Part shown: positions 3,228 to 47,664 of the stretch, one piece after another
Layout of the letters: each line of letters opens with the position of its first letter
Position numbering within the stretch: position 1 is the first letter of the stretch
DNA from: a virus
Strand: one strand, 5' to 3'
DNA: 64,000 bases
IMG/VR virus record: IMGVR_UViG_3300035659_000004
Location: 36,139-100,138 of that record
The notes under the pieces: generated by a model
Told to the model about the DNA's origin: nothing
Seen by the model: only the letters and a program-made list of their open reading frames with translations
The model's database searches: none
Program-made: the position numbers and the translations under genes

Positions 3228-3306
3228 CCATTCGTTCTCACCTCCTCTCAGGGGGTGATGCAAAGGTCTCCTCTCTATATACTTGTACCCAAAGTCGAGG
3301 TCGTAT

Positions 3307-6300
3307 ATGAATTTGACACCCATCCTTCAAAGTCCAGATGAGAAGCGCGAACGTATTCGGAATAAGGTCGTGGAAGGACTGACAGAATCATTCCCAATTA
3401 CGGCGCGTAACAAAATCATAGAAGTGACAGATGTTTCTTTTACTCCTCGAGACTACACCTCGAACGAGCAAAAGATGGCTATCTTGAGAGGTGATTCTCT
3501 TTTCGAGACCGCGAAGGGGACAGTGAAAATAAAAGACGCGAAGACGGGTAAAGTCTTGGATGAAGCGAAGGGATTTACATTAGCTCGAGTACCGTGGTTT
3601 ACTCCACGACACACGCTTATTGTCGGAGGAAATGAATATTCGATTGCGAATATGGTGCGTCCTAAACCAGGGGTGTACGCTCGCAAGCGCGCTAATGGAA
3701 TTCTCGAAGCAAGTTTTAATACCATAGGTACTTCGAACTTTAATGTAACGATGGACCCTGAAAAAGGTGAGCCAGAACTCGAATATGAATCCTCGAAGAT
3801 TCCCCTTTACACCATTCTTCGTGCATCGGGTATGTCCCATGAGACTATCGCGAAGAAGTGGGGTACTGCTCTTGCGAATGAGAATCGAAAGAAGCTAGAA
3901 AAGAATCTTCCGCAACACGTAGACCGTCTTTATAAAAAAGTCGTACCGGCGTATGCCCTTCTTCCCGATCTTACTGTCGATGCGAAGATGGCTGAGATTG
4001 TTAAGCGTTATGGTACGGCTAAGATGGACCCAAAAGTAAATGAAAAAACGTTGGGACACGCGTATGGACACGTAACTCCTGACAGTCTTTTGGATGCATC
4101 AGCTAAAGTTTTGAGTATTTTCCGTAACCCAGAAGAAGTCGATGACCGAGATAATCTCGACTTCAAATCTTTGCGTTCAGTAGAGGACTTTTTCAAGGAG
4201 CGTATCCAACTCGATGCTCGAGACATTGGACGTAGAGCTGCTATTAAAATCGAGAATACCCCTGAGGTACGCAAGGCCATGGCTCCCGGGGCGTTCACTC
4301 CTGGCCTCGTCAAATTCATCACGGGCTCGCAGTTGGCAGCTGTTCCGACGCAGACCAACCCCATGGAGCTCATCGATGCCGCAGTACGTGTGACGGCATT
4401 GGGTGAAGGTGGTATTAGTTCCGAACGTGCTATTCCAATGGAAGCACGGATGATTCATCCGACGCAGATTGGAGCTATCGACCCTGTTCGAACGCCTGAG
4501 TCTTTTCGAGCGGGTATTGACGTCCGTGCTGCTATTGGAGCGCATCATGATAAAGATGGTAACATCTATGTTCCCATGTTCGATTTGGCGACGGGGAAAC
4601 AAAAGCATATTCGGGCAGGAGAAATTGCAACTTCAATCGTGGCATTCCCTCAGCAAGTTTTAAAGGGGAAGGTCTCAGCGCTTGTTAATGGACGTGTGGC
4701 GATGGTTCCTGCTAGTAAAGTTCAGTATCAAATACCACACTCATCTGCGATGTATGGACCTACTTCAAATCTCATTCCGTTCATCGAATCGTTGCAAGGG
4801 AATCGCCAACTGATGGGGTCCAAGCATCAGACCCAAGCTATCTCGTTAGTTGATCGAGAAGCTCCCTATGTACAGGTAATGGCGCCGGGTGGAAAATCTT
4901 TTGAGCATCTCATGGCGACGATTGTTAATCCAACAGCGCCAGTTGCGGGAACAATTGAGAAAGTAGATGGGGATTACATCTACATTCGACCACATGATAA
5001 GACAGCAGCCGTTAAAAAGGATAAAGACTCGGACCTCGTGCGCGTGTCATATGATACGTACTTGCCGATGGCTGCTAAGACCTATCTCAACCATACCGTC
5101 ACGGTGAAAGCGGGGGATGAGGTTAAGAAGGATGAGATCCTCGCGGAGTCTAATTTCACGAAAGATAAGACGCTAGCTCTCGGTAAAAATCTTTCCGTTG
5201 CATACATGCCTTATTACGGAGCAAATTCAAATGACGCGGTAGTTATCAGTTCCGGCGCCGCTAAAAAGCTGACGTCCGAACGTCTCTATAAAATTGTGCT
5301 CCCGCGTGACGCTGACATGGTTTTCAATAGTACGAAGCATAAGACGTATTACGGACATACCTACGGACATGACTATTACAAGGGCGTAGATGAAGAAGGA
5401 GTAGTACGCCCGGGTGCGAAAATTAATAGTGGGGAACCTGTCGTATTTGGGTTGCGGAAATCGACCCTGACTTCTGATGATATTCTTCTGGGACGTCTGC
5501 ACAAATCTCTCGTCCGACCTTTCCGAGATGCGACGCAGACCTGGGACCATGACCATCCCGGAGAAGTTATGGATGTCGTAAAGACGCCTAAGAGAATTGC
5601 AATCACAATAAAAACACAGGAACCTATGCAGATAGGTGATAAACTCTGTTACACGGAAGATACAGAAGTCCTGACGACAACGGGGTGGAAGTACATTGTA
5701 GATGTTACCACCGATGATATTTGTTATACGCTCGATACGCAGGGCATAATTCATTTATATAATCCTACACATACTAACTATTATTCTAAAGCAGGACAAC
5801 TTTTTTTAGTACGTTCACAGCATGCAGATTTATCTGTGACGTTGGACCATAGTCAGGTAATTAAAGATGGTGATAGGAATAAATTAGTCCCATCGCGTGA
5901 ATTGGTTAATAAGCCTTTTCAATTGGTGCGCACAGGAATTTGGACGCCGAAGAGTGCTCCTGAGTCAGACTCATGGTGTGCACTAGTTGGTTTATACGCC
6001 GTAAAAGGACATCTTATTCCTGCGACGCTTATACAGGGAGTTATGGACCATTCTGTAGAGATTTATCTACGTCCGCGTATGTTAGAAGAAGAACGTCCTT
6101 GGTTGGACCTTATTTTGCAAGATACGCACCTGAAAGATAAGAGTTATATTCAAGGTGATATTTTGATTATCCGAGACCGAGATTTTTATTTAAGTTGTCA
6201 AGTATTAGGGGACGTCGTAGAACGGCGACTTCCAACATTGGTATTCACTCTGGCTCCTAGCCAAGCCGGGATAATTATTGATAGCGTTTTAAAAGCCGCA

Positions 6301-8667
6301 GGTCATCAGACAGGACGAAGTCATATTCAGTACGGAGATGGGACTGATGTCTGTGTCGTGTATTCGCGGCAGTTAGCGGATGATCTACAGCGCTTGGCGC
6401 TACACGCGGGGTATTCTGCAAACATCGCAACGCATACAGTGAAACGCCCGCAATATGCGAAACGTTATTCGCTGCGGTTCCTCCGAAAACGTAGCAATCC
6501 GTTCATCAATAACCCGAGAGGTAACCAACAGAACACGCGAGTTATCGATTCAGATGCTCCAGTGTTTGGTATTACCATTCCAAATCACACCTTGTACGTG
6601 CGTGTGAATGGAAAGCCTGTGTGGTCAGGTAACTCCGGGCGATACGGGAATAAGGGTGTGGTATCTGAAATCGTTCCGGATGACCAGATGATTAAAGACG
6701 AAGCAGGACGACCTATCGATGTTCTTTTAACGTCAGCAGGTGTTGTCTCGCGCGTGAATCCCGCACAAATAATTGAGACAGCTGTAGGAAAGGTCGTCGA
6801 GAAGACGGGCAAGCCACTCATCGTCGAAAGCTTTTCAGGAAGAGATAATGTGAAGTGGGCGAAAGACCTTCTTCAGGAGCACGGTCTAAAAGACAAAGAG
6901 ATGGTTTTTGACCCGCGTTCTGGAAAGAGTATCCCGAACGTGATGGTGGGACGCCAATACATCTTCAAGATGTTCAAGTCCACGGACACCAACTACAGCG
7001 CACGAGGTGTGGATACCTACGACGCAAATCTTCAGCCTACGAAGGGTGGGTCTGAGAGTGCAAAGGCCATAGGTAAGATGGAGTTCGACGCGCTTGTCGC
7101 ACACAACGCCCGGAATGTGTTGCGTGAGTCTTCGGTCCTGAAGAGTCAGAAGAACGATGAGTACTGGAGAGCTCTTCAGCTAGGATATCCCACGCCTCCT
7201 CCGCGCACGTCTTTCGCTTCGGACAAGTTCTTCAATATGCTGACAGGCGCGGGAGTTCGTGTTGATCGTAAAGGCTCGAAGATAGGGTTGGCGCCTCTCA
7301 CAGACGCGGACGTGATGGAGATGTCGGCAGGTGAGATACAGGACGCGAAGCTCGTCAGTGCTAAGAATTTAATGCCTGAAAAGGGTGGGCTCTTTGATCC
7401 TGCAATCACCGGTGGAATGAAAGGAACGAAGTGGTCACATATCAATTTGGCCGAGCCTATTATCAATCCTATTTTTAATGACCCAGTTCGGCGGTTGTTA
7501 GGGATGACTAACGCGCAGCTCGATAATACCGTGCGCACAAAGGGTATCGGTTACGTTAAATCCGAGCTCGCGAAGATAGACGTCACGAAACGTGAGAGTG
7601 AACTCATGGATATGGCGAATAATAAGAAGGGAAATGTGCTCGATGATGTCACCAAGCAGATAAAGTATTTGCGGGCATTGAAGGCGCAGAACATATCTCC
7701 GGAGAAGGCTTACATCTCGAGCGTTATCCCGGTTCTTCCTCCGATCTTTCGCCCGGTGTTGCCAGGTAAGGGTGGGCAGGAGCTCATTTACGGCGACATC
7801 AATCCGCTGTACCGCGACTTGGTGTACGTGAACAACCAGTTCAAAGAGCTGAAGAAGTCTGGGAAGCTTCCTGACGAAGAGGCCAAGTTGCGAGGAACTC
7901 TCCAATCAGCGGTTGGAGCTGTGTATGGGATGAACGACCCCATCACACAGAAGTCAAAGAGTAGAAATCACAAGGGATTCCTGACGTATATCGCAGGACA
8001 GGGGAGCCCCAAGTACGGGTACGTGCATTCCAAGCTCCTGAAGAAACAGCAGGACTTGGCCGGCCGCGGAACGATTGTCCCGGATACGACTCTGGGAATG
8101 GACGAGGTCGGTCTCCCGGAGAATATGATTTGGACGATGTATAAACCGTTCATGATCACGCGCCTCGTGGGACAGGGGTATCCAGCGCTGCAGGCGAAGC
8201 AGATGGTCGATGATAAGCATCCCGCGGCGCGCGAGGCGATGATGCGCGAGACCCGGGAGCGGCCGGTCATGATCAACCGTGCGCCGACGCTGCATCGATA
8301 TGGAATAGTTGGAGCATATGCCATACCCAATGCCGGAAAGACCATAAGAATCAATCCTTTCGCGGAGGTAGGTACGAACAGCGATTTCGATGGGGATACG
8401 ATGATGGTCCACGTTCCAGCTGGAGCGAACGCTGTCGAAGATGTGAAGCGCATGACGCTTTCGAACACGCTTTATACTGACAAGATTCGCGGCGACCTAC
8501 TCGTGGCGCCTCGGATGGAATCGGTCATGGGGCTCGCGCAAGCTACGGCGGTTACGGGAAGCGGGAAGGCAAAGGTTTACCAAACCAAAGCCGAAGCGAT
8601 GGCGGACTACAATTCAGGAAAGATAGACCTGGGAACGAGGGTCACCATCAAGGACCGCAAGCCGTGA
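3307..8667 (+). CDS. Phage multisubunit RNA polymerase: beta fused to N-terminal half of beta', intein-containing
   Basis: Beta motifs HPTQIGAIDPVRTPE, NRQLMGSKHQTQA, ALGKNLSVAYMPYYG, GDKL/SGRYGNKGV, IGKMEFDAL; beta' motifs GLFDPAI, IPVLPPIFRP, NRAPTLHR, catalytic NSDFDGD (8377-8397). Start moved to ATG 3307 (GAGG SD). Confidence 0.92.
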   Translation: MNLTPILQSPDEKRERIRNKVVEGLTESFPITARNKIIEVTDVSFTPRDYTSNEQKMAILRGDSLFETAKGTVKIKDAKTGKVLDEAKGFTLARVPWFTPRHTLIVGGNEYSIANMVRPKPGVYARKRANGILEASFNTIGTSNFNVTMDPEKGEPELEYESSKIPLYTILRASGMSHETIAKKWGTALANENRKKLEKNLPQHVDRLYKKVVPAYALLPDLTVDAKMAEIVKRYGTAKMDPKVNEKTLGHAYGHVTPDSLLDASAKVLSIFRNPEEVDDRDNLDFKSLRSVEDFFKERIQLDARDIGRRAAIKIENTPEVRKAMAPGAFTPGLVKFITGSQLAAVPTQTNPMELIDAAVRVTALGEGGISSERAIPMEARMIHPTQIGAIDPVRTPESFRAGIDVRAAIGAHHDKDGNIYVPMFDLATGKQKHIRAGEIATSIVAFPQQVLKGKVSALVNGRVAMVPASKVQYQIPHSSAMYGPTSNLIPFIESLQGNRQLMGSKHQTQAISLVDREAPYVQVMAPGGKSFEHLMATIVNPTAPVAGTIEKVDGDYIYIRPHDKTAAVKKDKDSDLVRVSYDTYLPMAAKTYLNHTVTVKAGDEVKKDEILAESNFTKDKTLALGKNLSVAYMPYYGANSNDAVVISSGAAKKLTSERLYKIVLPRDADMVFNSTKHKTYYGHTYGHDYYKGVDEEGVVRPGAKINSGEPVVFGLRKSTLTSDDILLGRLHKSLVRPFRDATQTWDHDHPGEVMDVVKTPKRIAITIKTQEPMQIGDKLCYTEDTEVLTTTGWKYIVDVTTDDICYTLDTQGIIHLYNPTHTNYYSKAGQLFLVRSQHADLSVTLDHSQVIKDGDRNKLVPSRELVNKPFQLVRTGIWTPKSAPESDSWCALVGLYAVKGHLIPATLIQGVMDHSVEIYLRPRMLEEERPWLDLILQDTHLKDKSYIQGDILIIRDRDFYLSCQVLGDVVERRLPTLVFTLAPSQAGIIIDSVLKAAGHQTGRSHIQYGDGTDVCVVYSRQLADDLQRLALHAGYSANIATHTVKRPQYAKRYSLRFLRKRSNPFINNPRGNQQNTRVIDSDAPVFGITIPNHTLYVRVNGKPVWSGNSGRYGNKGVVSEIVPDDQMIKDEAGRPIDVLLTSAGVVSRVNPAQIIETAVGKVVEKTGKPLIVESFSGRDNVKWAKDLLQEHGLKDKEMVFDPRSGKSIPNVMVGRQYIFKMFKSTDTNYSARGVDTYDANLQPTKGGSESAKAIGKMEFDALVAHNARNVLRESSVLKSQKNDEYWRALQLGYPTPPPRTSFASDKFFNMLTGAGVRVDRKGSKIGLAPLTDADVMEMSAGEIQDAKLVSAKNLMPEKGGLFDPAITGGMKGTKWSHINLAEPIINPIFNDPVRRLLGMTNAQLDNTVRTKGIGYVKSELAKIDVTKRESELMDMANNKKGNVLDDVTKQIKYLRALKAQNISPEKAYISSVIPVLPPIFRPVLPGKGGQELIYGDINPLYRDLVYVNNQFKELKKSGKLPDEEAKLRGTLQSAVGAVYGMNDPITQKSKSRNHKGFLTYIAGQGSPKYGYVHSKLLKKQQDLAGRGTIVPDTTLGMDEVGLPENMIWTMYKPFMITRLVGQGYPALQAKQMVDDKHPAAREAMMRETRERPVMINRAPTLHRYGIVGAYAIPNAGKTIRINPFAEVGTNSDFDGDTMMVHVPAGANAVEDVKRMTLSNTLYTDKIRGDLLVAPRMESVMGLAQATAVTGSGKAKVYQTKAEAMADYNSGKIDLGTRVTIKDRKP
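5647..6633 (+). mobile_element. Intein (329 aa) with degenerate LAGLIDADG-like domain
   Basis: Begins CYTEDTEVLTTTGWK, ends NHTLYVRVNGKPVWSGN followed by Ser(+1); interrupts GDKL|SGRYGNKG; block-H-like SRQLADDLQRLA. Confidence 0.9.
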
Positions 8668-10136
8668 CAGATTCTCCGACGATCATCTCCGGACCGGACT
8701 ATACCCTGACTAAACAGGAAGTGGTCGATTACTATAAAGACCCGGGGGTTCGAGAAAAGCTTCTTCAGCATATCGGGAGCAACCCTGTTCTGACTGTGAT
8801 GCAGCGCACCCCCGGGGAGCCCATCTATCGACGCTACGACGCGAAGAAGCAGCCTCTTCTTCTGAATCCCCAGTCGTTAGACGACCTTACGAGGCAACGT
8901 ACCGTGGAGTTCCACTCTACCCTCGGCGAGGGTACACGGGAAATGTGGGTAGATTTGGACCCTGGCTCGGCGGTCTCTCCCGGCCGGCTCAAGCAGACGG
9001 TGAAGCACGTTGAAGACGTGTTGCGAAAACTCCCTCAGGTCACGAATACGAATATCGTTTTTTCAGGAGGTCGAGGCTACCACGTGCGCGCCGAGCTCGA
9101 GAAGGAGCTCAAGACAGACGCCGCCCGAAAGCTTCTTCAAAAGACGTTGCGCCCGCTGCAGACGTCGAGCCCCGACCTTGTGGATGCTCCTCCTGGAGGA
9201 ACTCAGATTCGCTTGGATACCTCGACGTTCCATGCCAAAGGGTCTGTGCGGGCGCCCTACTCTTTGAACGCGACGACGGGACTGGTAGCGTTGCCTGTGG
9301 CGCGTGAAAAGTTGGACATATTCGAGCCCAAGACTGATGCGTCCATCAAGAGTGTCTTGTCCCAAAAAGACATCGGGGAGTTTGCTCCAGGGATTCCTCG
9401 AGAGCGAACGACTCAGCTCCTGCCGACTGCCAAGGGCAAGGCCTGGACGCTTGCGATACAGAAGCACGTAGCTGAAAAGGCTGGACCGCATTGGGACTTG
9501 CGCCTCGTTGACCCCGAGACAGGACAGGCCCATTCCTGGGCGGTCCCTAAGGCTTCTTTTCCGGACTCCAAGCCACGCCTTGCTTTGCAGATGCCAACGC
9601 ATAGCGCGGACTACGCCCTTTCTTTTGGTGCGAAAGGTCCGCAAACTATTCGTGAAGGGTACGGTAAGGGCACGGTGGAGATGGCGCATAAGGAGCCTAT
9701 CCAAGTTTTGGAAATCAATCCAAATAAGGTTGTTTTTCAGCGCGGCTCCGGGGACACTCTGGCGATGCGTCGAACGAACGAAAACAAGTGGTTGCTCCGA
9801 AAGGCAACGAACATGACTGAGAAGAATGCTTTTTACGTTGCTGGATACCGCGCGGCGCTTGCCAAGCTTGGGGCAGCGGCAGTTAAACCTGTGGGAATGC
9901 GTGGAAAAGAGATGTCCTATGGAGAGGGAAACCGTCCCCTGGAAAGTGGAGATTCCCATCTTCCCGCGGGACAGGTTGCGATGATGTTCCAGCAGTTGCC
10001 CCGAGCTCAACGACGAGGTGGCAGTGTATCGTTGGAGAACTCGTCAGCCGTCGGAGATAACCATGCGGATTGGGGTCCAGCAATGGACGTCTCGAGTTTT
10101 GATGGAGCTTCTCCGTATATGGCAGGACGGAACTGA
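8664..10136 (+). CDS. LigD-like AEP primase-polymerase fused to LigD 3'-phosphoesterase domain, with extra C-terminal tail; no ligase domain
   Basis: AEP motifs VEFH, VDLDPG, SGGRGYHV, RAPYSL; PE motifs QKH..HWDLRL, SWAVPK, RLAL..H..Y, GYGKGTV. Confidence 0.85.
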   Translation: MTDSPTIISGPDYTLTKQEVVDYYKDPGVREKLLQHIGSNPVLTVMQRTPGEPIYRRYDAKKQPLLLNPQSLDDLTRQRTVEFHSTLGEGTREMWVDLDPGSAVSPGRLKQTVKHVEDVLRKLPQVTNTNIVFSGGRGYHVRAELEKELKTDAARKLLQKTLRPLQTSSPDLVDAPPGGTQIRLDTSTFHAKGSVRAPYSLNATTGLVALPVAREKLDIFEPKTDASIKSVLSQKDIGEFAPGIPRERTTQLLPTAKGKAWTLAIQKHVAEKAGPHWDLRLVDPETGQAHSWAVPKASFPDSKPRLALQMPTHSADYALSFGAKGPQTIREGYGKGTVEMAHKEPIQVLEINPNKVVFQRGSGDTLAMRRTNENKWLLRKATNMTEKNAFYVAGYRAALAKLGAAAVKPVGMRGKEMSYGEGNRPLESGDSHLPAGQVAMMFQQLPRAQRRGGSVSLENSSAVGDNHADWGPAMDVSSFDGASPYMAGRN

Positions 10137-10139
10137 TCC

Positions 10140-11942
10140 ATGGCAGATAGGACTGACACATTCGGAAGATTGCTTGTAAATGACTTGTTGCCAGACGAGC
10201 ACAAGGTCACGGGACCTATATCGAAGAAATCTTTTTATAAGATGCTCGATACGATGTCGCGTGAGACTCCGGATGCGTATGTCCGCATAGTGCCCGAGTT
10301 AAAACGTCTCGGAGATTCACTTGCTACGACGGAGGGGCTCTCGGTTGGATTGGACGATATCACTCCCAACTATAAAGATAGGAATGAAACACTTGCTCCT
10401 TTTATTACGCGTTTCGATGCGGCTAAAACGGATAAGGCCCGGAGTCAAATAGCAGAAGAAGCGCATGGTAAGATGCAAGATGTGGCGATGCGCCATAAGG
10501 GAACGATGACGATGCAGGTACAGAGTGGGGCACGCGGTAACCCTACTCAGTACACCTCGATTGTGGCATCTCCAACTTCAGCACGAGACGGAAAAGGGAA
10601 TACGGAACCCTGGCTTATCCGACGGTCCCATAGCGAAGGGCTCTCTTCGGCGGATAACTGGGTCGCGGGAAATGAAGCCATTCTTAATACTATCAGTACA
10701 TACACAGCGGTATCTGAGCCGGGTGAATTGGCGAAGATTCTCGTGAGTAACATGAGCGACATCATAGTAACAGAGGATGATTGTGGAACTACTAATGGTG
10801 TGTTTATGACTGCTTTGTCTCCTTCTGTATTGGACCGTTATCTTGCGAAAGAAGTAGGTGGTTTTAAACATAACACGCTTATTACGTCACTCAATCAGTC
10901 CAAATTAGCAAAGATTTCTTCTACTATTCTCGTCCGATCTCCGATGACGTGTGAGGCAGGGGATGGTGTCTGCCAAAAGTGTCAGGGCCTAAATGAAAAG
11001 GGAAGCACGCATGATATCGGAACGAATGTTGGTGTACGCGCGGCCCAGGCAATGGCGGAACCTCTTACGCAATTCGCTCTCGGGGCCAAGCATGGGGCGC
11101 GAACAATTAAAGATGATCGTATCAAGGTGAAGGGGGTCCAAGGGTTTCGACAGATCATTGAATCCCCCCAGCAGTTTGTAAACAAGGCGACGTTGGCGCA
11201 GCTGAATGGAACTGTTGAGCGCATCACTCCGGCTCCACAAGGCGGCCATTACGTCGTGATTGGTGGACAACAACACTACGTAACTCCTAATCTCGCAGTC
11301 ACGGTAAAAGTTGGAACAGTCGTTCAGGCTGGAGACGCTGTAAGTCAAGGAATTCCCAAACCCGACGAAGTCGTACGACTGAAAGGTCTGGGAATAGGGC
11401 GTCAATATATTGTTGATACCTTGGCAGGTCTTTACAAGGACCAGGGTCGAGAATTAGATCAGCGGCATTTCGAGCTGCTCGCTAAGGGAGAGCTCAACTA
11501 CGTGCGCGTTCTCAAAGACCCAAGCCGTAATTTCGTTCCGGGGGACGTAGTTAGTTACAACGTCTTGAGGAGGGAACTGAAGAAGGGTACCAAGGTCATG
11601 CCCGTCGACGACGCCAACGGGGAGACTTTAGGTAAAGCTTATTTTCACTTTTATACAGGAACTCGTGTTACTCCCCAGATTCAGGCCTACCTGAAACAAC
11701 AGGGAGTAAAGGAAGTCATCATCGCTCCGCGTGCGCCTGAAGTAGAATTCATCATGAAAGCTGCGACCCGAGCCCCTCTTCTAAACCCCGATTGGATGGC
11801 TCGATTGTCGCATCGCAATTTGAAAAATACAATCATGCAAGCCACGCACTTTGGAGAATCTTCAGACATCCACGGAAGCCACCCTGTTCCTGCGTATATT
11901 ACGGGAGTAGAATTTGGGCAGGGTACCAAAGGAAAGTACTGA
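10140..11942 (+). CDS. Phage RNA polymerase beta' C-terminal half
   Basis: TFGR, GLSVGLDDI, SGARG, EDDCGT, VRSPMTC..GVCQKCQG, GVRAAQAMAEPLTQ..KH (trigger loop), RHFEL. Confidence 0.9.
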   Translation: MADRTDTFGRLLVNDLLPDEHKVTGPISKKSFYKMLDTMSRETPDAYVRIVPELKRLGDSLATTEGLSVGLDDITPNYKDRNETLAPFITRFDAAKTDKARSQIAEEAHGKMQDVAMRHKGTMTMQVQSGARGNPTQYTSIVASPTSARDGKGNTEPWLIRRSHSEGLSSADNWVAGNEAILNTISTYTAVSEPGELAKILVSNMSDIIVTEDDCGTTNGVFMTALSPSVLDRYLAKEVGGFKHNTLITSLNQSKLAKISSTILVRSPMTCEAGDGVCQKCQGLNEKGSTHDIGTNVGVRAAQAMAEPLTQFALGAKHGARTIKDDRIKVKGVQGFRQIIESPQQFVNKATLAQLNGTVERITPAPQGGHYVVIGGQQHYVTPNLAVTVKVGTVVQAGDAVSQGIPKPDEVVRLKGLGIGRQYIVDTLAGLYKDQGRELDQRHFELLAKGELNYVRVLKDPSRNFVPGDVVSYNVLRRELKKGTKVMPVDDANGETLGKAYFHFYTGTRVTPQIQAYLKQQGVKEVIIAPRAPEVEFIMKAATRAPLLNPDWMARLSHRNLKNTIMQATHFGESSDIHGSHPVPAYITGVEFGQGTKGKY

Positions 11943-11945
11943 AAC

Positions 11946-12434
11946 ATGTTTCAGCAGGGATATAGCGAAGCATTAATGCATCTTGGATTTGAAAAAAATG
12001 CAGCCGGGTGGTGGGCTGCGAAAGCGGTACCTAAGTTAAAAGAGATAGGACAATCCGCTCTGACAAATTTTATAGGACAACCTAAACAGTTTGGGCGCGA
12101 ATTGCGATCAGGTACCGCTTTCGGGTCAGGCGGTTTGATACGGGAAGGTTTTAAAGCTCCTGGAATTATTCAAAAAGGTCTTATGTATGGGTTTCCCGCA
12201 GTTTCTGCTATACAAACTATTCGAAGCAACGACCCTGATAAGGGGGGTGCATTAGGTGGACTCATTGGTGGAACACTCGCAAGCTCCGCGGCGTTTGGGC
12301 CACTTGGAATGCTCGGAGCGATGCCTGCTGGATATCTAGGAGAGGTAGCAGGTAAGCGTTTAGTGCATGGAGCAAAAAATATTTTAGGTATTGGGAATCA
12401 GACTGCTCCAAGATATACTTCTTTGCAGCAGTAA
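11946..12434 (+). CDS. Putative internal virion protein, Gly-zipper, GYxxAL leader
   Basis: MFQQGYSEALMHLGFEKNA; GxxxG-rich hydrophobic segments. Confidence 0.55.
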   Translation: MFQQGYSEALMHLGFEKNAAGWWAAKAVPKLKEIGQSALTNFIGQPKQFGRELRSGTAFGSGGLIREGFKAPGIIQKGLMYGFPAVSAIQTIRSNDPDKGGALGGLIGGTLASSAAFGPLGMLGAMPAGYLGEVAGKRLVHGAKNILGIGNQTAPRYTSLQQ

Positions 12435-12484
12435 GGAAACAAGCCGCGGCACAATTACCCGGCTAAGAACGTAAGGAAGGTCAA

Positions 12485-12976
12485 ATGAACGCAGAACTCG
12501 TGAAGCAAGCGTATGCCTACGGTGCCGCAGTTGCGCTACAGGAACTTGGTTTCAACCCACAGCAAGCTCAGAATGGGGGAGTGAAGTTGGCGGAAGCCAA
12601 GCTCGCCGAGGGGGAAGAAGAAGGTGGAATGCATCCAGCTTTGGCCGCTCTCCTTGGCGGTGGCGCGGGTGCTCTCGGCGGTGCGGCTTTGGGTGCTGGC
12701 AGTGCGTTCATTCCTGGTTTACGCGGCGGAAGAGGTTTGAATAAACTGTTGGGGCGTCCAATGTCCGCGGCACAAGGCGGCGGTATTATGGCTGGAAAGG
12801 TCACACCCGACGCTCTGTTCAAAAACAAATTCGTGCGCAAGCATTTGATGAACCAAGGTGAAGCGGCGGCTGACTTCCTGCCAAAACTGCAGGATGCATA
12901 TCTTCGTGGAATGGGTGGCGCAGGCGTAGGCGCTCTCGGTGGAGGCCTTGCTGGCGGCCTAATGGCGGGTGAGTGA
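12485..12976 (+). CDS. Putative internal virion protein, Gly-zipper
   Basis: SD upstream; KQAYAYGAAVALQELG; GGGAGALGGAALG. Confidence 0.55.
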   Translation: MNAELVKQAYAYGAAVALQELGFNPQQAQNGGVKLAEAKLAEGEEEGGMHPALAALLGGGAGALGGAALGAGSAFIPGLRGGRGLNKLLGRPMSAAQGGGIMAGKVTPDALFKNKFVRKHLMNQGEAAADFLPKLQDAYLRGMGGAGVGALGGGLAGGLMAGE

Positions 12977-18964: not shown

Positions 18965-21046
18965 ATGATGAAGAAGATTGTCCATCTCGACTCGCACTTC
19001 CCGACCGGCGAGCAAACGGTTCAGCCGGTGATGCTGTGGTCGAGAGGAAAAAGCTTCATCGAGCCCATCACGAAGTATGCCAGCGTTGGAGCTGAGTATT
19101 TCAAGACCATCGAACCCATTCCAGGGCACAGCATTGTTTACGTTCTCGCCGTCAGTGCATGGGAGCGCTACGGCGAGAATCGTAATGGAGATGGTTTTCC
19201 GGACCAGCCGTATAAACCTCTCTCTAGTCCTCCATGGATTTCAGAAGATGAAATTCTAAGCAAGCACTACAAATCTTTTGAGCAGTTCGGTTTCAATTAC
19301 CGTCATCATCAGAACACGGACCCTGAAAAGTCTGTCGGACGTGTGATGCGTGCGTTTTGGAATCCGACCATGTATCGCGTTGAACTCCTGATTGATGTCG
19401 ATAATGCGAAGGCTCCGGATTTAGCAAACCGTATAGCCGCGGGAGAATACCCCCCTGTTTCCATGGGTACTAAGGTCCCCTGGGACGTGTGCCTAATCTG
19501 CGGAAATAGAGCTCCTACCCGCGCCCAATACTGCGACCACCTCCGTTTTCAGATGCGTGAAGTCGTCAACGGATTGAAAGTCGCAGCCTTGAATCCGAGT
19601 TGTAAGTTCTTCGACATCTCCTGGGTGGTACGTCCCGCAGACCCCAACGCTTACATGTTGAAGAAGGTCGCGGAAGAGGCCTATGAAATCAAGCTCTCGG
19701 GAGCAGCTGCAGGTGAATACTTGGACGAGATGCAAGAGCGTAAGATGGCCGCACACAAACTCGCGGTCATCGACAAGGTCGTACAGGGAATTCCAGTAGA
19801 TGCTAAAACCGAGGGTGTTGACCCCATGCATCTTCAGAATATCCAGACGATGCAACCCACCGCCCAGAGCATGAGCGCAGGTCTTCCCGAGCTCCCGGAT
19901 GATTTGCTCCGGCGCCTGGCTTCTTCTTTTTCGCTGCCGGAAATCTTCACCTCGACGTTGGCGATGGGCATGCCTCTTTGCACCCGCGAGGTCGTGAAGA
20001 TTACTATCTACCGGCAGATGCCCCAGGTTCCGAACATGGATGGGATAGCGGATGCGGCTGTTGCAGCTCGACAGCCCCTGCTCGGTCTTTTTCAAGAGCA
20101 CCCTCAAATGCTGGATGCTTTTGAAAAGGATTTGGACATCGACCAATGTCATCTCAATCCAAAAGTTGCGGAAATGATTGGCACTGGAATGGAAAAACGT
20201 TCGGGTATTTACGAGTATTTGAAACGGAAATACATCCCGGGAAAATACCGTGACGAAACTTCTCAATTGACGCCTTTCACGCTCACGGACCCTGTTTCAG
20301 GGCAGCGCTATGGGACCAATCGTTGGGCAGCTATCCAAGCTCACGACGAAATTGCGAAAAAGAATTTACGCAAAGTTATTGGTGGAGGCGCGGCGTTGGG
20401 TGGGGCTTACGGTCTCATTTCTGCAGGGCTTCGTAGCAAAGGTTTATCTAAACTGAATCCCCTCGTAGCGGGTACCTTAGGTGCTGTTGGTCTTTCTAAC
20501 TTGCCTTCCATGGGTGCTCACTACATGACCGATCAAGGTGTCCCTATCCCAGTACTCACAGAGCTCACGAAGATGAGCGTGGACTCTTCTAGTTTTTCAC
20601 GCTCCCTCGCATTGCCTCTTTTTGGTACACTTGGAACAATGGCTCTTCTTGGAATGGATCGTAGACACCGTTTAGCCCAGGGCTATATTCCGGGTGACCC
20701 TAGTGAAGGAGTCTTACGGCGAGGGGTTGATACGCTCGGCTCTGCTGCAGCTAATTACCCCCTGCTTTTTGCAGGACTAGGAACCATGGGTCTTCGTGCT
20801 GCAGGGAATACGCAAACAGCTAAATACCTCGGAGAAAATATTGTCGGACCTTTAGCGCAAAAGGGAAAGAGTTGGGCTAATAAAACGGATGAAGCTCTTC
20901 GAGGTTGGGCTAAGAAGACAGACCAGGGTGTAAAAGATTGGGCGAGTACGAAGACCTCGTCAGACACGGTAGGTCTTCCTGATTTGGATATGGACAAAAT
21001 TGCTGAAAGTCTCGGCAAAATTCTGTTAGCAAACACGGTCTTGTAG
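18965..21046 (+). CDS. Prohead (capsid maturation) protease with Zn-ribbon and long C-terminal extension
   Basis: NRNGDGF, HHQN..GRV, VSMG, CLICGN..CDH, DISWVVRPADPNA (HK97/assemblin-type pattern); upstream of the capsid gene. Confidence 0.75.
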   Translation: MMKKIVHLDSHFPTGEQTVQPVMLWSRGKSFIEPITKYASVGAEYFKTIEPIPGHSIVYVLAVSAWERYGENRNGDGFPDQPYKPLSSPPWISEDEILSKHYKSFEQFGFNYRHHQNTDPEKSVGRVMRAFWNPTMYRVELLIDVDNAKAPDLANRIAAGEYPPVSMGTKVPWDVCLICGNRAPTRAQYCDHLRFQMREVVNGLKVAALNPSCKFFDISWVVRPADPNAYMLKKVAEEAYEIKLSGAAAGEYLDEMQERKMAAHKLAVIDKVVQGIPVDAKTEGVDPMHLQNIQTMQPTAQSMSAGLPELPDDLLRRLASSFSLPEIFTSTLAMGMPLCTREVVKITIYRQMPQVPNMDGIADAAVAARQPLLGLFQEHPQMLDAFEKDLDIDQCHLNPKVAEMIGTGMEKRSGIYEYLKRKYIPGKYRDETSQLTPFTLTDPVSGQRYGTNRWAAIQAHDEIAKKNLRKVIGGGAALGGAYGLISAGLRSKGLSKLNPLVAGTLGAVGLSNLPSMGAHYMTDQGVPIPVLTELTKMSVDSSSFSRSLALPLFGTLGTMALLGMDRRHRLAQGYIPGDPSEGVLRRGVDTLGSAAANYPLLFAGLGTMGLRAAGNTQTAKYLGENIVGPLAQKGKSWANKTDEALRGWAKKTDQGVKDWASTKTSSDTVGLPDLDMDKIAESLGKILLANTVL

Positions 21047-21099: not shown

Positions 21100-21654
21100 A
21101 TGGAATTCGGTAAGATGCTCGCTAACTTTAACGCTCCCGCTGCTTCTCAAACCAAGACAGCCAGCGCGGATAACTCCAAACAGCAGCTTGCTAGCGCCGT
21201 GGAAGCCACAAAGGTTGCCTCGGCGACGCAATCGACGGACGCGGTGGAGGCTCTCATGAAGACTGCTGCCACTTTGGCGGAAAATGAAAAGACGGCAGAG
21301 CTGGTGCATGCGCATATGAGCGGCCGGGCTTTCGCGCAGGGTGCTTTGGAAGTGTTTGCGGCAGCGGATTCTGCAGCTCAAAAAGTAGCGTCTGCGTATC
21401 CGCAACCGCAACTGCAATTACAGGATGACACAATGGTAAAAGCCGCGGCTGAGCAAGGCTACCAGGATACGATGGTTAAAGCTGCCGCCGAGCAGGGTTA
21501 TCGCGACACGATGACCAAGGCTGCCGCGGAGTACAACCAGGGCTACGAAGCGGCCGTCACTGACGCCGTCAACGCCGCCGCCAACGAGTTCTACAAGGGT
21601 GCACAAGAGGCCATGATTCTCATTCAGGCCGCTCGCAACCAGAAGAACGGTTGA
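21100..21654 (+). CDS. Putative scaffolding protein
   Basis: Ala-rich helical; many K-x-A; DTMVKAAAEQGY repeated about three times. Confidence 0.55.
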   Translation: MEFGKMLANFNAPAASQTKTASADNSKQQLASAVEATKVASATQSTDAVEALMKTAATLAENEKTAELVHAHMSGRAFAQGALEVFAAADSAAQKVASAYPQPQLQLQDDTMVKAAAEQGYQDTMVKAAAEQGYRDTMTKAAAEYNQGYEAAVTDAVNAAANEFYKGAQEAMILIQAARNQKNG

Positions 21655-22925: not shown

Positions 22926-23846
22926 ATGGCATACAACGTTGAAACCTCTACTCATTCCGCGCAGTTCCTGAACAAGTCCTTCATCTCCAAGATTGAAGGT
23001 GGCCAGACCAAGGAAGCGGTCGAGGCCAGCTCGCTGTTCATCCGCGAGCGTCTTCGTCAGGCTGCTGCTGTTCGTGAAGTGATCATCCCCCAAGGTGTGA
23101 CCGAAGAGGACATCGACCGGGACGAGAGCACCGATCAGCCGAAGATCATCATCGACAAGGAGCCGGATTCGTCGGCTACCTTCGTGCAATTCCAGGGAAC
23201 TGGTCGACGCACGTGGTTCAAGGGTCCTCGTTACTCGGTTCGCTTCGGCAAGGTCGAGTCGCAGAGATTCACCAAATCGAAGGCTGAGCTCATGACCTAC
23301 CGTTCTGACATTCGCAAGATTTTGTCAGACAATTCGGTCATGGACATGGCGGACGAAGAGGATCGTAAATTCTACGAGCTCGTCGCTGCCATCATTGCTG
23401 CGAACCCGTCGGTACAGCGTACCTCGGGTCCGTTCCAGAGCGGCACCTTCAAGACTGCCTGCCAGGCGATGCTGACCGGAACTCGCAAACGTCCCATCGG
23501 CAAGCTACTCTTGAGCAAAGAGCGCTACATGGACGCACTCGACCTGCCGGCGACCTCTGTCGGTGACGAGATCGCGAAGCGCCATTTCGATGAGGGTATC
23601 GAAGCTTCTCAGAAGCTTTGGGGACTCCCGGTCGTGACCCACGTCAAGTCGGATATCTATCCGACCGACAAGGGTTGGATCTTCTCCCCAACCTCGCCGA
23701 ACAATTTCCTCGGCAACTTTTTCACTCTGCAAGATGCAACTCTGTTCATCAAGCAGGAAGCTGACATCATCTCCTTCTGGACGTACGAATACATCGGAAT
23801 CGGTTTGGCCAATTCTTTGTCCATGCAGGAAATCGTTTTTAGTTGA
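22926..23846 (+). CDS. Major capsid protein (HK97 fold, inferred)
   Basis: 306 aa; GGGAGG SD; C-ending codon bias; follows protease, scaffold and decoration genes. Confidence 0.7.
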   Translation: MAYNVETSTHSAQFLNKSFISKIEGGQTKEAVEASSLFIRERLRQAAAVREVIIPQGVTEEDIDRDESTDQPKIIIDKEPDSSATFVQFQGTGRRTWFKGPRYSVRFGKVESQRFTKSKAELMTYRSDIRKILSDNSVMDMADEEDRKFYELVAAIIAANPSVQRTSGPFQSGTFKTACQAMLTGTRKRPIGKLLLSKERYMDALDLPATSVGDEIAKRHFDEGIEASQKLWGLPVVTHVKSDIYPTDKGWIFSPTSPNNFLGNFFTLQDATLFIKQEADIISFWTYEYIGIGLANSLSMQEIVFS

Positions 23847-28738: not shown

Positions 28739-31453
28739 ATGCCTCTATCTAGACCGAACACTGTCATTTATCAAGAGTACGCGGACCTTTCCGTTGTTCC
28801 GGCCACCCCATTCCTGAACAGCCTCATTGTGGGTCCCTGCTACCAGCTGTTGGACTACCTCGATGACATGGATGACTGTTATGCCGGATTGTACGGGACG
28901 CTACGGATGGCGTATCCCCGCACGACTCCGACGGCCGCCGTAGTCATCGCGACTCCTCCTGAGCTCGAAACTGGGGCAATCCTCGAAGATGACAGCGTGT
29001 CGATTTTCTTCGATGAGGCACAGGTGGTGATAACAGAGGTAACGGGCTCAGGCAGTCCGACCAACGGCATATTTTACGCAAGTGATAATCTGTTTACGAC
29101 CACGAATAACACAGGCTTTCACATGAATGATAAATATGTGCAAGCTGGAGACACGCTCATCGCGCAAGCCAATGGCGCTGCAGACTGCATCAAAACTGTA
29201 AAAGAGTTGGCTTTTACTTTTTACGATAAGGGGGCCGGAAATCCACTGAGCTTCACAACAGCAGGAGTGGATATTGGAGATATCATCACAGTGTCTGCGG
29301 ATGCTGCGACTCCTTCTCGCGACGGCATTTACACCGTAAAAAAGAAGTACATCGTCAATGGGTCCGTGGTTGCTGATGCCATCGAGATCGAAGATGCGAC
29401 GAGTCTTTCCACGGGATCAGAAGGATTGGCGCATGTCCGTATTACCTCAGCAGGTGGTACTAAGAAATTTGATAGCACGACTGACGGTACTACGGGGAAA
29501 GTAAATTTGGGTGATTGGTGCAACCTACGAGTCACAACCGATTTCGATACGGCGAATGCGGCGAACTGCCGTTGGCGCGTCGAGCGTCAGCTGAGCGACG
29601 TGGAGCTTGCATCGTCAGATTTCTCGGTAAATACGACGACCAAAGCTGTTACATTGATTGCCGGAGTTACCGCGACTGTGAGCACCGTCATCGGCGCGAA
29701 GCCTGTCTCCTACGCGAAGATGTACATGCAGTACAAGGCCTTGCGCCTCGACCTGCAAAACATCGCGGAGGTTTCATCCCCGTCTGAAGCTATCGCGCTT
29801 TTGGGAAAATATGATGCGCGTAACCCGCTCTGCGTGGGCGTGCACGTCGCATTGGCGAATACCACGACTCCCATCAAGTGCTACGGTATCGCGGCGGATA
29901 CCCTGGCAGGATATGGCGATTTCATCGAGCGCACCAGCCATCTATCGGATATCTACGCTGTCACACCACTGACATATGACACCAGCATCATCGGTTCTCT
30001 GAAAGATGCGTGGGAAAACTACGCTGACCCAGACTACGTGCTGCAGCGCGGCATCAAGCAAAAGTTCCGGACGACTCTCGGCGCCGTGGACCTCGTCACG
30101 CAGAGTGACGTTATCGTAGCGAAGGGTGGTGCGTCGACGCTGGTGAAAGCTGGCACGACCCCGACGGGGAATAAGACGCTCACGCTTTCGGGTCTCGTAG
30201 GTCAAACTGCCGATTTTAGCGCAGCCAGTGTCCTTCCGGGTGACATTGTGCATGCTACCATCGGCGGTGTCGTCTTGGGACCTTTCACAGTTGCACATGT
30301 TAATACTGCTTTGATTCTGGAAACAGAAGAAGCTCTCGCAGGTCTGGGTGCTGCTAGTAATGCACTCGACACTTTGGACATCACAGACCCGACTGGAGTT
30401 ATTCATCGGTTCACAGCTCTCACGTACTCCGTTGGTGTAAAAGAATTCGTCCTCGGAGCAAGTGTTCTTGACGCCCTTTATCTGACGCTGAGTTCTTCAA
30501 ACTCGACGTTCATCACCAGTGGCGTCGTTCCGGGTGACCTCCTTCAGATGCCGAGCGATCCCGAGACAACGACCTGGACGACCTACGACACGTGGGAAGT
30601 AGCCTCGGTGGACAGCGAGACACGCATCACGATTGCCAACAACGGCAACAATTCGTCCGACCTCGAAAACGAGTTCCCACACTTGGTCAAGCGCACAGCC
30701 GCAACAGACCGCTCCGTAACACAGGGCACGCTTTACTTCCGCGTCAAGCGTGACATGACCAAGACCGAGCAGGTCAACTACATGCTCGCGGTCGCGCACA
30801 GCTTGGATAGCAAGCGCGCGCTGCTCTACTACCCAAACAGCGTGGACGTGACCGACCTCGTGGACGGCAGCAAGACGCGTACTGGTACCGCCGCCGAGCT
30901 CGCCGATCCCCAGCCGGGTTACTACCTGGCCTGCATGGTCGCGGGACAGACCGCGAGCCAGCCGTCGCAGCAGGGCTTCACGAACATGGGTGGAAACGGT
31001 ATCTCCCGTGTTTATAACTCGAACGACTACTTCAGCGAAGAGCAGCTGACCAGTTTGTCGAACGGCGGCGTGTACGTCTTCGTGCAGGATGCTCCGACTG
31101 CGCTACCTTATACAATTCATGCGGTGACGACGGACGTTCTTTCGCTCGAGACTGGTGAGTACATGCACGTGAAGAATTTGGATTACCTTTCGATGTCCTT
31201 CCTCGAGACCTTGCGCCCCTTCAACGGGAAGTGGAACATCACGCCCGACGCTCTCCAATTCATCACGCAGGCTTTGTACGCGGTTATCACCACGCACAAG
31301 ACAGCCTACAGAGCTCGGATTGGTGCGCCACTTATCAACGCTACGGTACGCACGGTTTACCAGAACACCGATGTTGAAGACCGGATTGAAGCGTATATTG
31401 ACGTTAACCTGCCCACGGTGCTCAACACCATCGGCCTGCACTTGGTGTCATAA
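28739..31453 (+). CDS. Tail sheath protein with large insertions
   Basis: 904 aa; N-term RPNTVIYQE; C-term PSQQGFTN..LSNGGVYVF..TT..GKWNIT..IEAYIDVNLPTVLNTIGLHL. Confidence 0.8.
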   Translation: MPLSRPNTVIYQEYADLSVVPATPFLNSLIVGPCYQLLDYLDDMDDCYAGLYGTLRMAYPRTTPTAAVVIATPPELETGAILEDDSVSIFFDEAQVVITEVTGSGSPTNGIFYASDNLFTTTNNTGFHMNDKYVQAGDTLIAQANGAADCIKTVKELAFTFYDKGAGNPLSFTTAGVDIGDIITVSADAATPSRDGIYTVKKKYIVNGSVVADAIEIEDATSLSTGSEGLAHVRITSAGGTKKFDSTTDGTTGKVNLGDWCNLRVTTDFDTANAANCRWRVERQLSDVELASSDFSVNTTTKAVTLIAGVTATVSTVIGAKPVSYAKMYMQYKALRLDLQNIAEVSSPSEAIALLGKYDARNPLCVGVHVALANTTTPIKCYGIAADTLAGYGDFIERTSHLSDIYAVTPLTYDTSIIGSLKDAWENYADPDYVLQRGIKQKFRTTLGAVDLVTQSDVIVAKGGASTLVKAGTTPTGNKTLTLSGLVGQTADFSAASVLPGDIVHATIGGVVLGPFTVAHVNTALILETEEALAGLGAASNALDTLDITDPTGVIHRFTALTYSVGVKEFVLGASVLDALYLTLSSSNSTFITSGVVPGDLLQMPSDPETTTWTTYDTWEVASVDSETRITIANNGNNSSDLENEFPHLVKRTAATDRSVTQGTLYFRVKRDMTKTEQVNYMLAVAHSLDSKRALLYYPNSVDVTDLVDGSKTRTGTAAELADPQPGYYLACMVAGQTASQPSQQGFTNMGGNGISRVYNSNDYFSEEQLTSLSNGGVYVFVQDAPTALPYTIHAVTTDVLSLETGEYMHVKNLDYLSMSFLETLRPFNGKWNITPDALQFITQALYAVITTHKTAYRARIGAPLINATVRTVYQNTDVEDRIEAYIDVNLPTVLNTIGLHLVS

Positions 31454-31887
31454 TGAAAAGCGTTTTTTACCAAGCAGGTTACGACGAAGCCCTCGTGAAG
31501 ATGGGCGGCTGGGGTTCGGCGATACAAAAAGGTGTCTCGGCTGCTGGCAAATGGATAGGAAATCTTGGAGCCAAGATGGGTCCTGTAGCGCCTGCGGGAG
31601 TAGGTAAGGCTGCTCCAACGGGATGGCTTGCGGGGAAAGCCCAAGGTGCGGCCCAAGGTTTGGGTCAATCCATCAGCAACCTCGCCGCGGCCCCGGGTCA
31701 AACCCTTTGGCAGGGCGCTGGAAACTTCGGAAAGAACATGCTCGGGATGGGAAATGCCGCGACTACAAGCGGTGTCTTAGGCCGCGGCGCCATGGGCGTT
31801 GGCCTGGTGGGTGGCGCTACGGGTGGATTTGGACAAAGATCGCAACCAGGGCCGGGGAAACTACCGGGTCCGGGACAGATGCAATAG
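31453..31887 (+). CDS. Gly-rich putative internal virion protein, GYxxAL leader
   Basis: MKSVFYQAGYDEALVKMG. Confidence 0.55.
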   Translation: MKSVFYQAGYDEALVKMGGWGSAIQKGVSAAGKWIGNLGAKMGPVAPAGVGKAAPTGWLAGKAQGAAQGLGQSISNLAAAPGQTLWQGAGNFGKNMLGMGNAATTSGVLGRGAMGVGLVGGATGGFGQRSQPGPGKLPGPGQMQ

Positions 31888-46237: not shown

Positions 46238-46686
46238 AAAAAGGTATATGGTCTTTGTCTCTTCTCCTTTTCTTGTTTCTTACTAAACCGATACAGGCTG
46301 AAGACTTCCCTGAACGAAAAGTACCAGACGTAAAAACGACGACGTTGCAAGGCAAGGACTATAAATGTTTTGACACAGCCCAATATTCGTCGCTTCTGCT
46401 TATGTCCTCGGATTACCAGGCTCTTCGGCAGGTCTATTATCTGAATGTCCCCAAGCTCTATAATGACTTGGAAGATTTGTACGTCCTCAAACTGTCGCTC
46501 AAGGATGACGAGCTTGCTGTGGTCAAAGGGCATTTGAGTAACGCACAGAAAGAACTCGCAGCTCGGTCTTTAGTCGACGAAAAAGTCGTGAAGAAACTAC
46601 AGTTGTCTGCGACAGGTTGGAAAGTTATCTCTGGAGTGGAAGCTGCGTTGCTCGTGGCCGTAACTGGTTACGCTATCTTCAAGTAA
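46234..46686 (+). CDS. Signal-peptide protein with C-terminal hydrophobic anchor (possible lysis component)
   Basis: MKKGIWSLSLLLFLFLTKPIQA; C-term AALLVAVTGYAIFK. Confidence 0.5.
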   Translation: MKKGIWSLSLLLFLFLTKPIQAEDFPERKVPDVKTTTLQGKDYKCFDTAQYSSLLLMSSDYQALRQVYYLNVPKLYNDLEDLYVLKLSLKDDELAVVKGHLSNAQKELAARSLVDEKVVKKLQLSATGWKVISGVEAALLVAVTGYAIFK

Positions 46687-47224
46687 AAAGTCCCATCGCT
46701 TCTTGCAACCCCGGACGTGCAGCTCTATTCTGGAATAAGCTATTCACGACAGGGGTCTGGGATTGAGCTTGAAGAAGTTGGTCAGCTTGCCGGAATTGTG
46801 CAGCTTGTTGGGGATAAGCTCCTGCGAATTGATTTTGGTGTGCGATATTCACAGGTGTCTTGGGGGCGGCCTGTAAGCGGACTGTCGCTGGGTCATACCC
46901 AGGGAGATTTTTAGCTCGAGCTGCAGGTGCGACAGTTGCTGATGGTGTTTGTTCCGCTAGAGTTCTAAACGGAGTTTGGGGTTCCACCGTTCGAGATTTA
47001 AGGCCTTCCATAAATTCTCTTTGTGTTGGGGTAGGAACTCCTGGGCGCACCGTCGGTCGAAGAGCTGCTCGCATGGCGGTACTCTCAGGTGCCACCATAG
47101 CCGTAGCCGGCGCGCGTGTGAAGAGGCTCTTCGCCGCTCGCGCGGCTGAGTCTAGGATACCTGCTTCTTTTTGAAATCCCAGGTCCCAAAGCGCTTGGGT
47201 ATATCCTAGCTGCTGAAAATTCAT
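46679..47224 (-). CDS. Putative internal virion protein, GYxxAL leader
   Basis: MNFQQLGYTQALWDLGFQKEAG. Confidence 0.6.
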   Translation of the reverse strand: MNFQQLGYTQALWDLGFQKEAGILDSAARAAKSLFTRAPATAMVAPESTAMRAALRPTVRPGVPTPTQREFMEGLKSRTVEPQTPFRTLAEQTPSATVAPAARAKNLPGYDPATVRLQAAPKTPVNIAHQNQFAGAYPQQAAQFRQADQLLQAQSQTPVVNSLFQNRAARPGLQEAMGLFT

Positions 47225-47664
47225 TGGTATCCTGCCTGCATTTGCATCTGTGGGTCGTACTGCTGCATGGGCTGTCCCGGAGGTGGAGCTCCCGAGCCCA
47301 TCACATATCCTAGGCCACCCGCTCCTGCGCCAGTCAGAGCTATACTCTTGAGTGGGTTACTCCGAATACGCGCTAAAAGACCCGGAGATGCTGTTGCTGC
47401 AGGCGCTGCGGCTGCTGCTTCTGTGGCTGCTGCCGCTGCCGGAGCTGCTGCCGCTGCCGGAGCTGCTGCCGCTGCCGGAGCTGCTGCCGCTGCCGGAGCT
47501 GCTGCCGCTGCCGGAGCTGCTGCCGCTGCCGGAGTTTTTGGAGTACGCGTAAAGAATCCTTTCGCTTTCGACGCTAGAGTCTTTGCCCCTGAGATTAATC
47601 CCGCTTCTTTTATCAGACCCATATCGACTAATGCCGCTTGATATCCTGCTTGTTTGAAAGGCAT
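47221..47664 (-). CDS. Putative internal virion protein, GYxxAL leader, PAAAAA repeats
   Basis: GGAGG SD; MPFKQAGYQAALVDMGLIKEAG. Confidence 0.6.
   Translation of the reverse strand: MPFKQAGYQAALVDMGLIKEAGLISGAKTLASKAKGFFTRTPKTPAAAAAPAAAAAPAAAAAPAAAAAPAAAAAPAAAAATEAAAAAPAATASPGLLARIRSNPLKSIALTGAGAGGLGYVMGSGAPPPGQPMQQYDPQMQMQAGYQ
47426..47533. repeat. Perfect 18 bp tandem repeat, six copies
   Basis: GCTGCTGCCGCTGCCGGA x6, encoding PAAAAA on the minus strand. Confidence 0.95.

Follow-up and report, generated by a model that had tools for sequence, protein, structure and literature searches.

Why should a phage place the two end-remodelling domains of a bacterial DNA repair protein between the two parts of its RNA polymerase (RNAP)? 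This question is raised by a 64,000-nucleotide (nt) stretch (hereafter, the window; positions 36,139 to 100,138 of IMG/VR record IMGVR_UViG_3300035659_000004) of an uncultured phage with a genome of ~180 kb, the 100-kb record itself being rated 56% complete. Here, an open reading frame (ORF; 8664-10136, plus strand; protein P0001) encodes a 490-residue protein, called Pol-PE below, that is composed of a LigD-type polymerase (Pol) domain (an archaeo-eukaryotic primase, AEP), a LigD-type 3'-phosphoesterase (PE) domain, and a C-terminal tail. On its 5' side lies the gene for a 1794-residue fusion of RNAP beta with the N-terminal part of beta' (beta-beta'N; 3283-8667, plus strand; Pfam Rpb2_6, Rpb2_3, Rpb1_1, and Rpb1_2), which ends ~70 residues past the NSDFDGD catalytic loop, and on its 3' side that for the 600-residue C-terminal part of beta' (beta'C; 10140-11942, plus strand; Pfam Rpb1_5). 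An initial annotation, made from the sequence of the window, had described a GTGA overlap at the first junction and a 3-nt gap at the second, and both are borne out: the GTG at 8664 that starts Pol-PE shares bases with the TGA (8665-8667) that ends beta-beta'N, and a 3-nt spacer separates the Pol-PE stop codon (10134-10136) from the ATG of beta'C at 10140. Homologues start at the same residue as the window protein, some of them with ATG.

The Pol domain (aa 1-235; 8664-9368, plus strand) belongs to the PF21686 (LigD_Prim-Pol) family of Pfam, scoring 58.4 bits over aa 60-233 where the cut-off is 27.4, and it is no equivalog by TIGR02778 (46 bits, cut-off 214.7). A phmmer search of the PDB matched the protein to the polymerase domain of Mycobacterium tuberculosis LigD and to an archaeal PE, and placed the catalytic D97, D99, and D185 on the DLD and VD motifs of the former. 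All three are invariant across the 36 homologues that we aligned (alignment A1; 35-81% identity). The motif S134-G135-x-x-G138-x-H140 is also present, with H140 replaced by Tyr in some homologues. Moreover, K17, which is conserved to at least 90%, lines up with the lysine of the M. tuberculosis TK motif, which we take to be part of the DNA 5'-phosphate pocket; a second lysine is not alignable. An AlphaFold2 (AF2) model was built on the 36-homologue alignment; over aa 1-235, its predicted local distance difference test score (pLDDT) exceeds 90. Foldseek matched it to 2iru, 2irx, and 2fao (E ~1e-11 to 1e-12, target template modelling (TM) score 0.68-0.71), with a TM of 0.70 for the M. tuberculosis LigD polymerase domain. 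The top ranks of this search were occupied by LigD polymerase domains, Prim-PolC, and LigD or archaeal PE structures.

The PE domain (aa 250-383; 9411-9812, plus strand) aligns with the Pseudomonas aeruginosa LigD PE (PDB ID: 3n9b). When the profile of the 36 homologues was compared with solved PE structures, the match had an E of 4.9e-14, and the AF2 model (pLDDT ~84-94 over aa 250-383) gave a TM of 0.85 to the archaeal PE 3p4h in Foldseek. Residues Q266, H268, H276, D278, R280, H313, and Y317 align with Gln40, His42, His48, Asp50, Arg52, His84, and Tyr88 of the P. aeruginosa enzyme and are invariant in the alignment.

Judged by these residues and folds, the protein is a real and most likely active Pol-PE enzyme with intact active sites. 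Its anatomy, an AEP and a PE without a ligase, is as first annotated: Pfam, PDB, and fold comparisons agree, and the protein has no match to the ATP-dependent ligase family PF01068. Because it lacks that domain, it is not a LigD, and its best NCBIfam match, NF007210 for the mycobacterial Pol-PE-Lig LigD, covers positions 137-451 (the Pol and PE parts) far below the cut-off. PHROGs has no family for the protein, and tblastn found zero Pol-PE homologues among 50,697 deposited phage genomes. The gene is under purifying selection, the ratio of non-synonymous to synonymous substitution rates (dN/dS) being ~0.08 against the 81% identical homologue of locus L004 (with dS saturated) and ~0.11 for the tail in the same comparison. 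As to its GC content (0.56, against 0.51 for the window), this lies inside the range of its neighbours (0.43-0.59), and a recent horizontal insertion was rejected by this measure.

The position of the gene is conserved across the clade. It stands exactly between beta-beta'N and beta'C in every one of the 29 IMG/VR loci where the homologue is full-length (38-81% identity). Nor do relatives found without reference to the enzyme, as a rule, lack it at this site: a search with beta'C alone gave 22 loci (53-89% identity), 21 of which have Pol-PE directly 5' of beta'C. Of the 30 loci formed by the window and these 29, 25 have a distance of -11 to 0 nt from the beta'N stop to the Pol-PE start, and the distance from Pol-PE to beta'C is -4 to +3 nt in most. 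Junctions that overlap or abut are thus the rule, and the tight coupling to both RNAP genes that was first suggested by the window holds for most of the 30 loci. Moreover, enzyme identity tracks beta'C identity to the query (r=0.95), the enzyme diverging faster than beta'C. Each genome examined in the clade has a single beta-type gene.

More distantly, Vibrio phage D69 and Salmonella phage Arash share the partition of RNAP into beta-beta'N and beta'C, the window beta'C being 31% and 29% identical to their respective homologues. The split holds two small ORFs in D69 and nine genes in Arash, two of them annotated as virion proteins. Closer to the window, sister lineages fill the slot with related modules. 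In L033 (RNAP ~45% identical), it is occupied by a 1031-residue protein with Pol, P-loop kinase, and PE domains. In L032 (8932-11751), a 939-residue protein combines a PE with an ATP-dependent ligase, DUF4269, and a C39 peptidase behind a tag-like N-terminus (see below), in short a PE-ligase-nucleotidyltransferase (NTase)-peptidase arrangement. In L036, the PE stands alone in the slot and the Pol follows beta'C. End-healing modules therefore recur at the RNAP slot despite domain shuffling, and this recurrence argues for a functional link more strongly than conserved gene order alone does.

Further evidence comes from the tail (aa 384-490, ~107 residues; 9813-10133, plus strand), most of which is disordered, the model having a pLDDT below 50 over the greater part of it and two short helices, at 389-401 and 434-443. 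Its conserved motifs are a GYxxALxKLG helix (aa 394-403; 9843-9872, plus strand; G394 and K401 invariant), a P-A-G-Q-L-A helix, R-L-N-R..W, and G-x-S-P. A Met stands just before the first helix in 25 of the 36 homologues, and K-x-G/A/S precedes it in all 36, so that the tail has the look of a small ORF joined to the enzyme. In fact, such an ORF exists: a free-standing frame of 100 residues in L032 (13361-13663) abuts beta'C and aligns to the whole tail (hhalign 93.7%, E=1.9e-7). Likewise, in L098, the sole beta'C relative without the enzyme, the ORF 5' of beta'C retains a PE remnant together with a complete tail. The tail thus has an origin of its own: given its free homologue in L032 and its retention in L098, it is native to the slot and the enzyme is the add-on, a point that the initial annotation had not made. 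No homology to the tail could be demonstrated for the 143-residue slot ORF of L036 (hhalign probability 0.1%). The fusion of enzyme and tail is kept in 36 of 36 homologues and, being a fusion to a small protein native to the slot, suggests that the enzyme probably travels with the polymerase.

The initial annotation had pointed out a K-x-A and a GYxxAL tag in this tail, and these are indeed found as K387-N388-A389 and, at aa 394-403, GYRAALAKLG. While the other tail motifs are unique to Pol-PE within the genome, the tag motif recurs in four further proteins of this phage against a chance expectation of ~0.01 (a rough estimate from amino-acid frequencies). All four are small, low-complexity proteins encoded in or near the head-gene region, each identified by the motif: a Gly-rich protein with an N-terminal tag followed by K-N-A (11946-12434, plus strand), the orthologues of which in L003, L004, L014, and L030 keep the tag; a Gly-rich protein with an N-terminal tag (31453-31887, plus strand); a protein with an N-terminal tag and then K-E-A (46679-47224, minus strand); and an Ala-rich protein with the same arrangement (47221-47664, minus strand). 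In the near-complete 173-kb relative G001, the tag is found at five orthologous places, all within 12-54 kb, in addition to one doubtful match. The neighbourhood includes a head maturation protease (18965-21046), a scaffold candidate (21100-21654), and a capsid protein (22926-23846), whereas the tagged small proteins and most of their neighbours have no Pfam or PHROGs match. This pattern fits a loading or docking peptide. A co-fold of the capsid protein, the scaffold candidate, and the tail (here taken as aa 381-490) scored 0.01 and weighs neither way. By analogy, internal proteins of phage T4 are targeted to the capsid by an N-terminal sequence that is removed by the prohead protease, and here too a short peptide would be shared by unrelated proteins and followed by a candidate cleavage motif, K-x-A/G/S. 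There is, however, no sequence relation to the T4 proteins, the motif is internal in Pol-PE, and both targeting and cleavage are putative in this phage.

Tag-like sequences were seen elsewhere as well. The scaffold candidate, which lies 3' of the head protease, contains three GY-containing repeats resembling the tag. In L098 (266-5983), four neighbouring proteins (a 214-residue protein, an SNF2-family helicase, a DUF5662 protein, and a glycine-zipper protein) carry a repeated, tag-like K-T-A-N-Q-I-A-D-E-A-L-x-K motif.

As for what could complete the repair of an end, the initial annotation had seen no Ku in the window. This holds, and the extended search found neither Ku nor ligase in the 100-kb record or in three near-complete relatives (G001-G003; 95-100% complete). 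Specifically, PF01068 had no match in the record or these relatives, NAD-dependent and RNA ligases were likewise without a match in both, and Ku (PF02735) was missing from G000, G001-G003, Arash, and D69; since the family scan also missed the known PE of G001, its limited sensitivity makes zero matches weak evidence of absence. With that reservation, and as far as its near-complete genomes show, the clade is one without a phage Ku or ligase. As a separate observation, the outgroups without Pol-PE, Arash and D69, have ATP-dependent ligases, D69 an RNA ligase as well, and Pol-PE and ligase appear complementary between G001-G003 and these two phages.

How, then, might the enzyme be used? The reading that we prefer, tentatively and with a little under even confidence, is that Pol-PE is an intact but ligase-less end-processing enzyme which its tail tethers to RNAP and/or loads into the prohead, the host ligase doing the sealing. 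Its Mn-type AEP polymerase would extend 3'-OH ends at gaps and breaks, and its phosphoesterase would clear 3'-phosphates or other 3' blocks. Joined to the N-terminus of the ~100-residue protein that belongs in the gap between the RNAP genes, the enzyme would be co-produced with both RNAP parts from one tightly coupled operon of three ORFs adjoining the head genes. The tail would then tether it to the sole phage RNAP and/or, via the GYxxALxKLG helix, load it into the prohead, so that a repair enzyme would arrive or act together with RNAP. Damaged ends, nicks, and gaps in phage DNA would be healed by removal of the 3' block and short fill-in, with sealing left to the host ligase. That a split RNAP of this type can be carried in particles is suggested by Arash, whose beta and beta' rank first and fifth by detection among the proteins in purified particles (PMC10585845).

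We also entertain, as a rather unlikely extension of this reading, that the slot encodes a small adaptor, the GYxxALxKLG helix of which loads it into the prohead, taking along RNAP bound to its other conserved motifs. Different lineages would have fused different repair enzymes to this adaptor or tag, namely Pol-PE, Pol-kinase-PE, PE-ligase-NTase-peptidase, and, with a variant of the tag, the SNF2 helicase of L098, giving rise to an injected modular kit for repair and transcription.

Several points weigh against the preferred reading. On the side of the protein itself, the PE match to LigD_N (PF13298; 28.8 bits at aa 266-340) falls slightly below the Pfam cut-off of 31.1, and one active-site position departs from P. 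aeruginosa, where Glu82, presumably the residue needed for ribonucleoside resection, is replaced by P311, nearly invariant in the family; this is the sole departure. On the side of the locus, many of the loci counted above are near-duplicates and the independent lineages are fewer than the counts, and position alone is weak evidence of function because phage modules keep their gene order anyway. L098 shows that Pol-PE is dispensable, and a phage without Ku or ligase would be unable to finish end joining alone. As regards loading, the tag is internal in Pol-PE and N-terminal in the other four proteins. Arash is a distant phage (~30% RNAP identity) without a Pol-PE gene; as many as 116 of the 272 Arash proteins were picked up, which makes carry-over likely, and the authors allow for it (PMC10585845). 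The initial reading of an enzyme co-packaged with RNAP and injected is thus supported in part: for the present clade, we infer packaging, injection, and RNAP binding of Pol-PE, and likewise its substrate, its tethering, and its timing.

An alternative that we doubt but take seriously is a cytoplasmic repair enzyme, expressed late and co-transcribed with the RNAP and head genes for no other reason than its insertion at a permissive junction. It would be neither packaged nor bound to RNAP and would mend intermediates of replication or packaging, or damage done by nucleases. The split within RNAP is a hot spot for insertions, where Arash has nine unrelated genes and D69 two small ORFs; other large phages encode PE-ligase fusions and giant Lig-Pol-PE proteins apart from any RNAP; and the enzyme was lost in L098. 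Such an enzyme would not, however, explain why end-processing modules recur in the same slot in three sister lineages despite shuffling, nor why the in-frame fusion to a tagged, slot-native protein is never undone among the 36 homologues. A further candidate is an RNAP accessory with RNA or transcription as its target, which might, for example, make or trim RNA primers for RNAP or heal the 3' ends of tRNA or transcripts cut by host nucleases. LigD Pol favours ribonucleoside triphosphates and PE removes 3' ribonucleotides, which would agree with this general scheme, as would the translational coupling between the RNAP halves and the P-loop kinase of the L033 sister form, reminiscent of RNA-healing enzymes. 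Yet we consider it improbable, given that no RNA ligase was found in the near-complete clade genomes, that the AEP is nearest to polymerases of DNA-break and gap repair, and that K17 aligns with a lysine of what is presumably a DNA 5'-phosphate pocket.

A role in priming, which the initial annotation had allowed for alongside healing, fares worse where replication is meant. Several homologues are named 'DNA primase' by the Joint Genome Institute (JGI), and the AEP fold and weak PriS matches of the protein could be cited for a replicative primase-polymerase. This candidate was nevertheless rejected as very improbable: a large ORF with a DnaG-type zinc ribbon and/or Toprim is present in all five genomes (G001-G003, Arash, and D69; 1171-1237 residues in the first three), so that with a DnaG-type primase in the clade the AEP is not needed for that purpose. 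Moreover, helicase, PriCT, and zinc-finger partner domains were not found in the Pol-PE protein, which is fused to an end-healing PE and encoded in a late, structural region. Hardly credible, finally, is a selfish or decaying passenger of no use to the phage. The loss in L098 and the inteins hosted by the adjacent RNAP genes might hint at one, but the catalytic residues are invariant, dN/dS is as low as given above, the gene has diverged vertically together with RNAP, no endonuclease domain is present, and GC content is no outlier.

Among known systems, the enzyme and its setting have partial parallels. LigD-type end-processing domains are parts of bacterial non-homologous end joining (NHEJ), and we found no paper on phages using them in such an arrangement. 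Bacterial LigD (M. tuberculosis Rv0938, Pol-PE-Lig; P. aeruginosa PA2138, PE-Lig-Pol) has the same two end-remodelling folds and catalytic residues, and the Pol-to-PE order of the phage protein is the mycobacterial one. Unlike LigD, the phage enzyme has neither a ligase domain nor a Ku partner, bears an additional phage-specific tail, is encoded inside an RNAP operon, scores far under the equivalog cut-offs, and has Pro in place of the P. aeruginosa Glu82. The NHEJ Pol and PE of Methanocella paludicola (PDB IDs: 5dmu and 5dmp) and the archaeal PEs 3p4h and 3p43, among which is the best structural match to the phage PE, are also ligase-less; there, however, Pol and PE are separate proteins with Ku and ligase encoded nearby, whereas in the phage they are fused and neither partner was found. 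Mycobacterial Prim-PolC works with LigC in excision repair (PMC5663958). Like the phage Pol, which it matches structurally, Prim-PolC is an AEP, in its case a polymerase that fills gaps and depends on a separate ligase, but it is cellular and lacks a PE domain. As to phage-encoded RNAPs in particles, these are known from phiKZ-like phages, N4, and Arash (PMC10585845 for the last), none of which has been described with a LigD-like enzyme in the RNAP operon, and the Pol-PE clade differs from them in having one RNAP set.

What the locus offers, then, is a large clade of uncultured ~180-kb phages in which a ligase-less Pol-PE is welded to a small protein of the RNAP operon. If the enzyme travels with RNAP, it would be a protein-delivered counter-measure against damage to incoming DNA, and the shared helix would serve as a portable signal for loading, of use in cargo engineering. 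Otherwise, it is still a clear instance of a phage that has kept just the end-remodelling pair of NHEJ activities and leaves the sealing to its host.

Apart from Pol-PE, the RNAP genes themselves contain insertions. An intein-like insert of ~340 residues (5593-6612, plus strand; GC 0.43) interrupts RNAP beta within the GDK..GNKGV motif, with Cys as its first residue and Asn as its last, followed by Ser; it has no Pfam or NCBIfam match, is carried by the window, L003-5, L007, L009, and L017, and is cleanly absent from most relatives. A second large insertion, in beta'N near the catalytic NADFDGD, is seen in L006, L007, L010, L015, L016, and L029 as a gap of ~1.4-1.5 kb at residue ~1705 of the window protein, and is probably another intein. 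Just 5' of the RNAP operon, a conserved 579-residue protein without a family match (861-2600) is encoded in all relatives, and D69 has an ORF of similar size (593 residues) at the same place.

In other large phages, the PE is usually fused to a ligase. Giant ORFs of ~2800 residues, with no RNAP nearby, were seen on a 301-kb contig (L057:6130-14685) and a 42-kb contig (L062:2833-11139), with an N-terminal ligase, an AEP in the middle (by tblastn; Pfam marginal, and in L057 only), and a C-terminal PE, the L057 protein having an additional DJ-1/PfpI domain. Lastly, seven Pol-PE homologues of the alignment (P0015, P0024, P0025, P0029, P0032, P0034, and P0059) have an N-terminal extension with the motif P-x-S-x-A-Q-R-x-A-V-W-A. 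In the RNAP split of L032, a DUF5661 protein (11794-12786) begins with a similar motif, which may be a second portable peptide.

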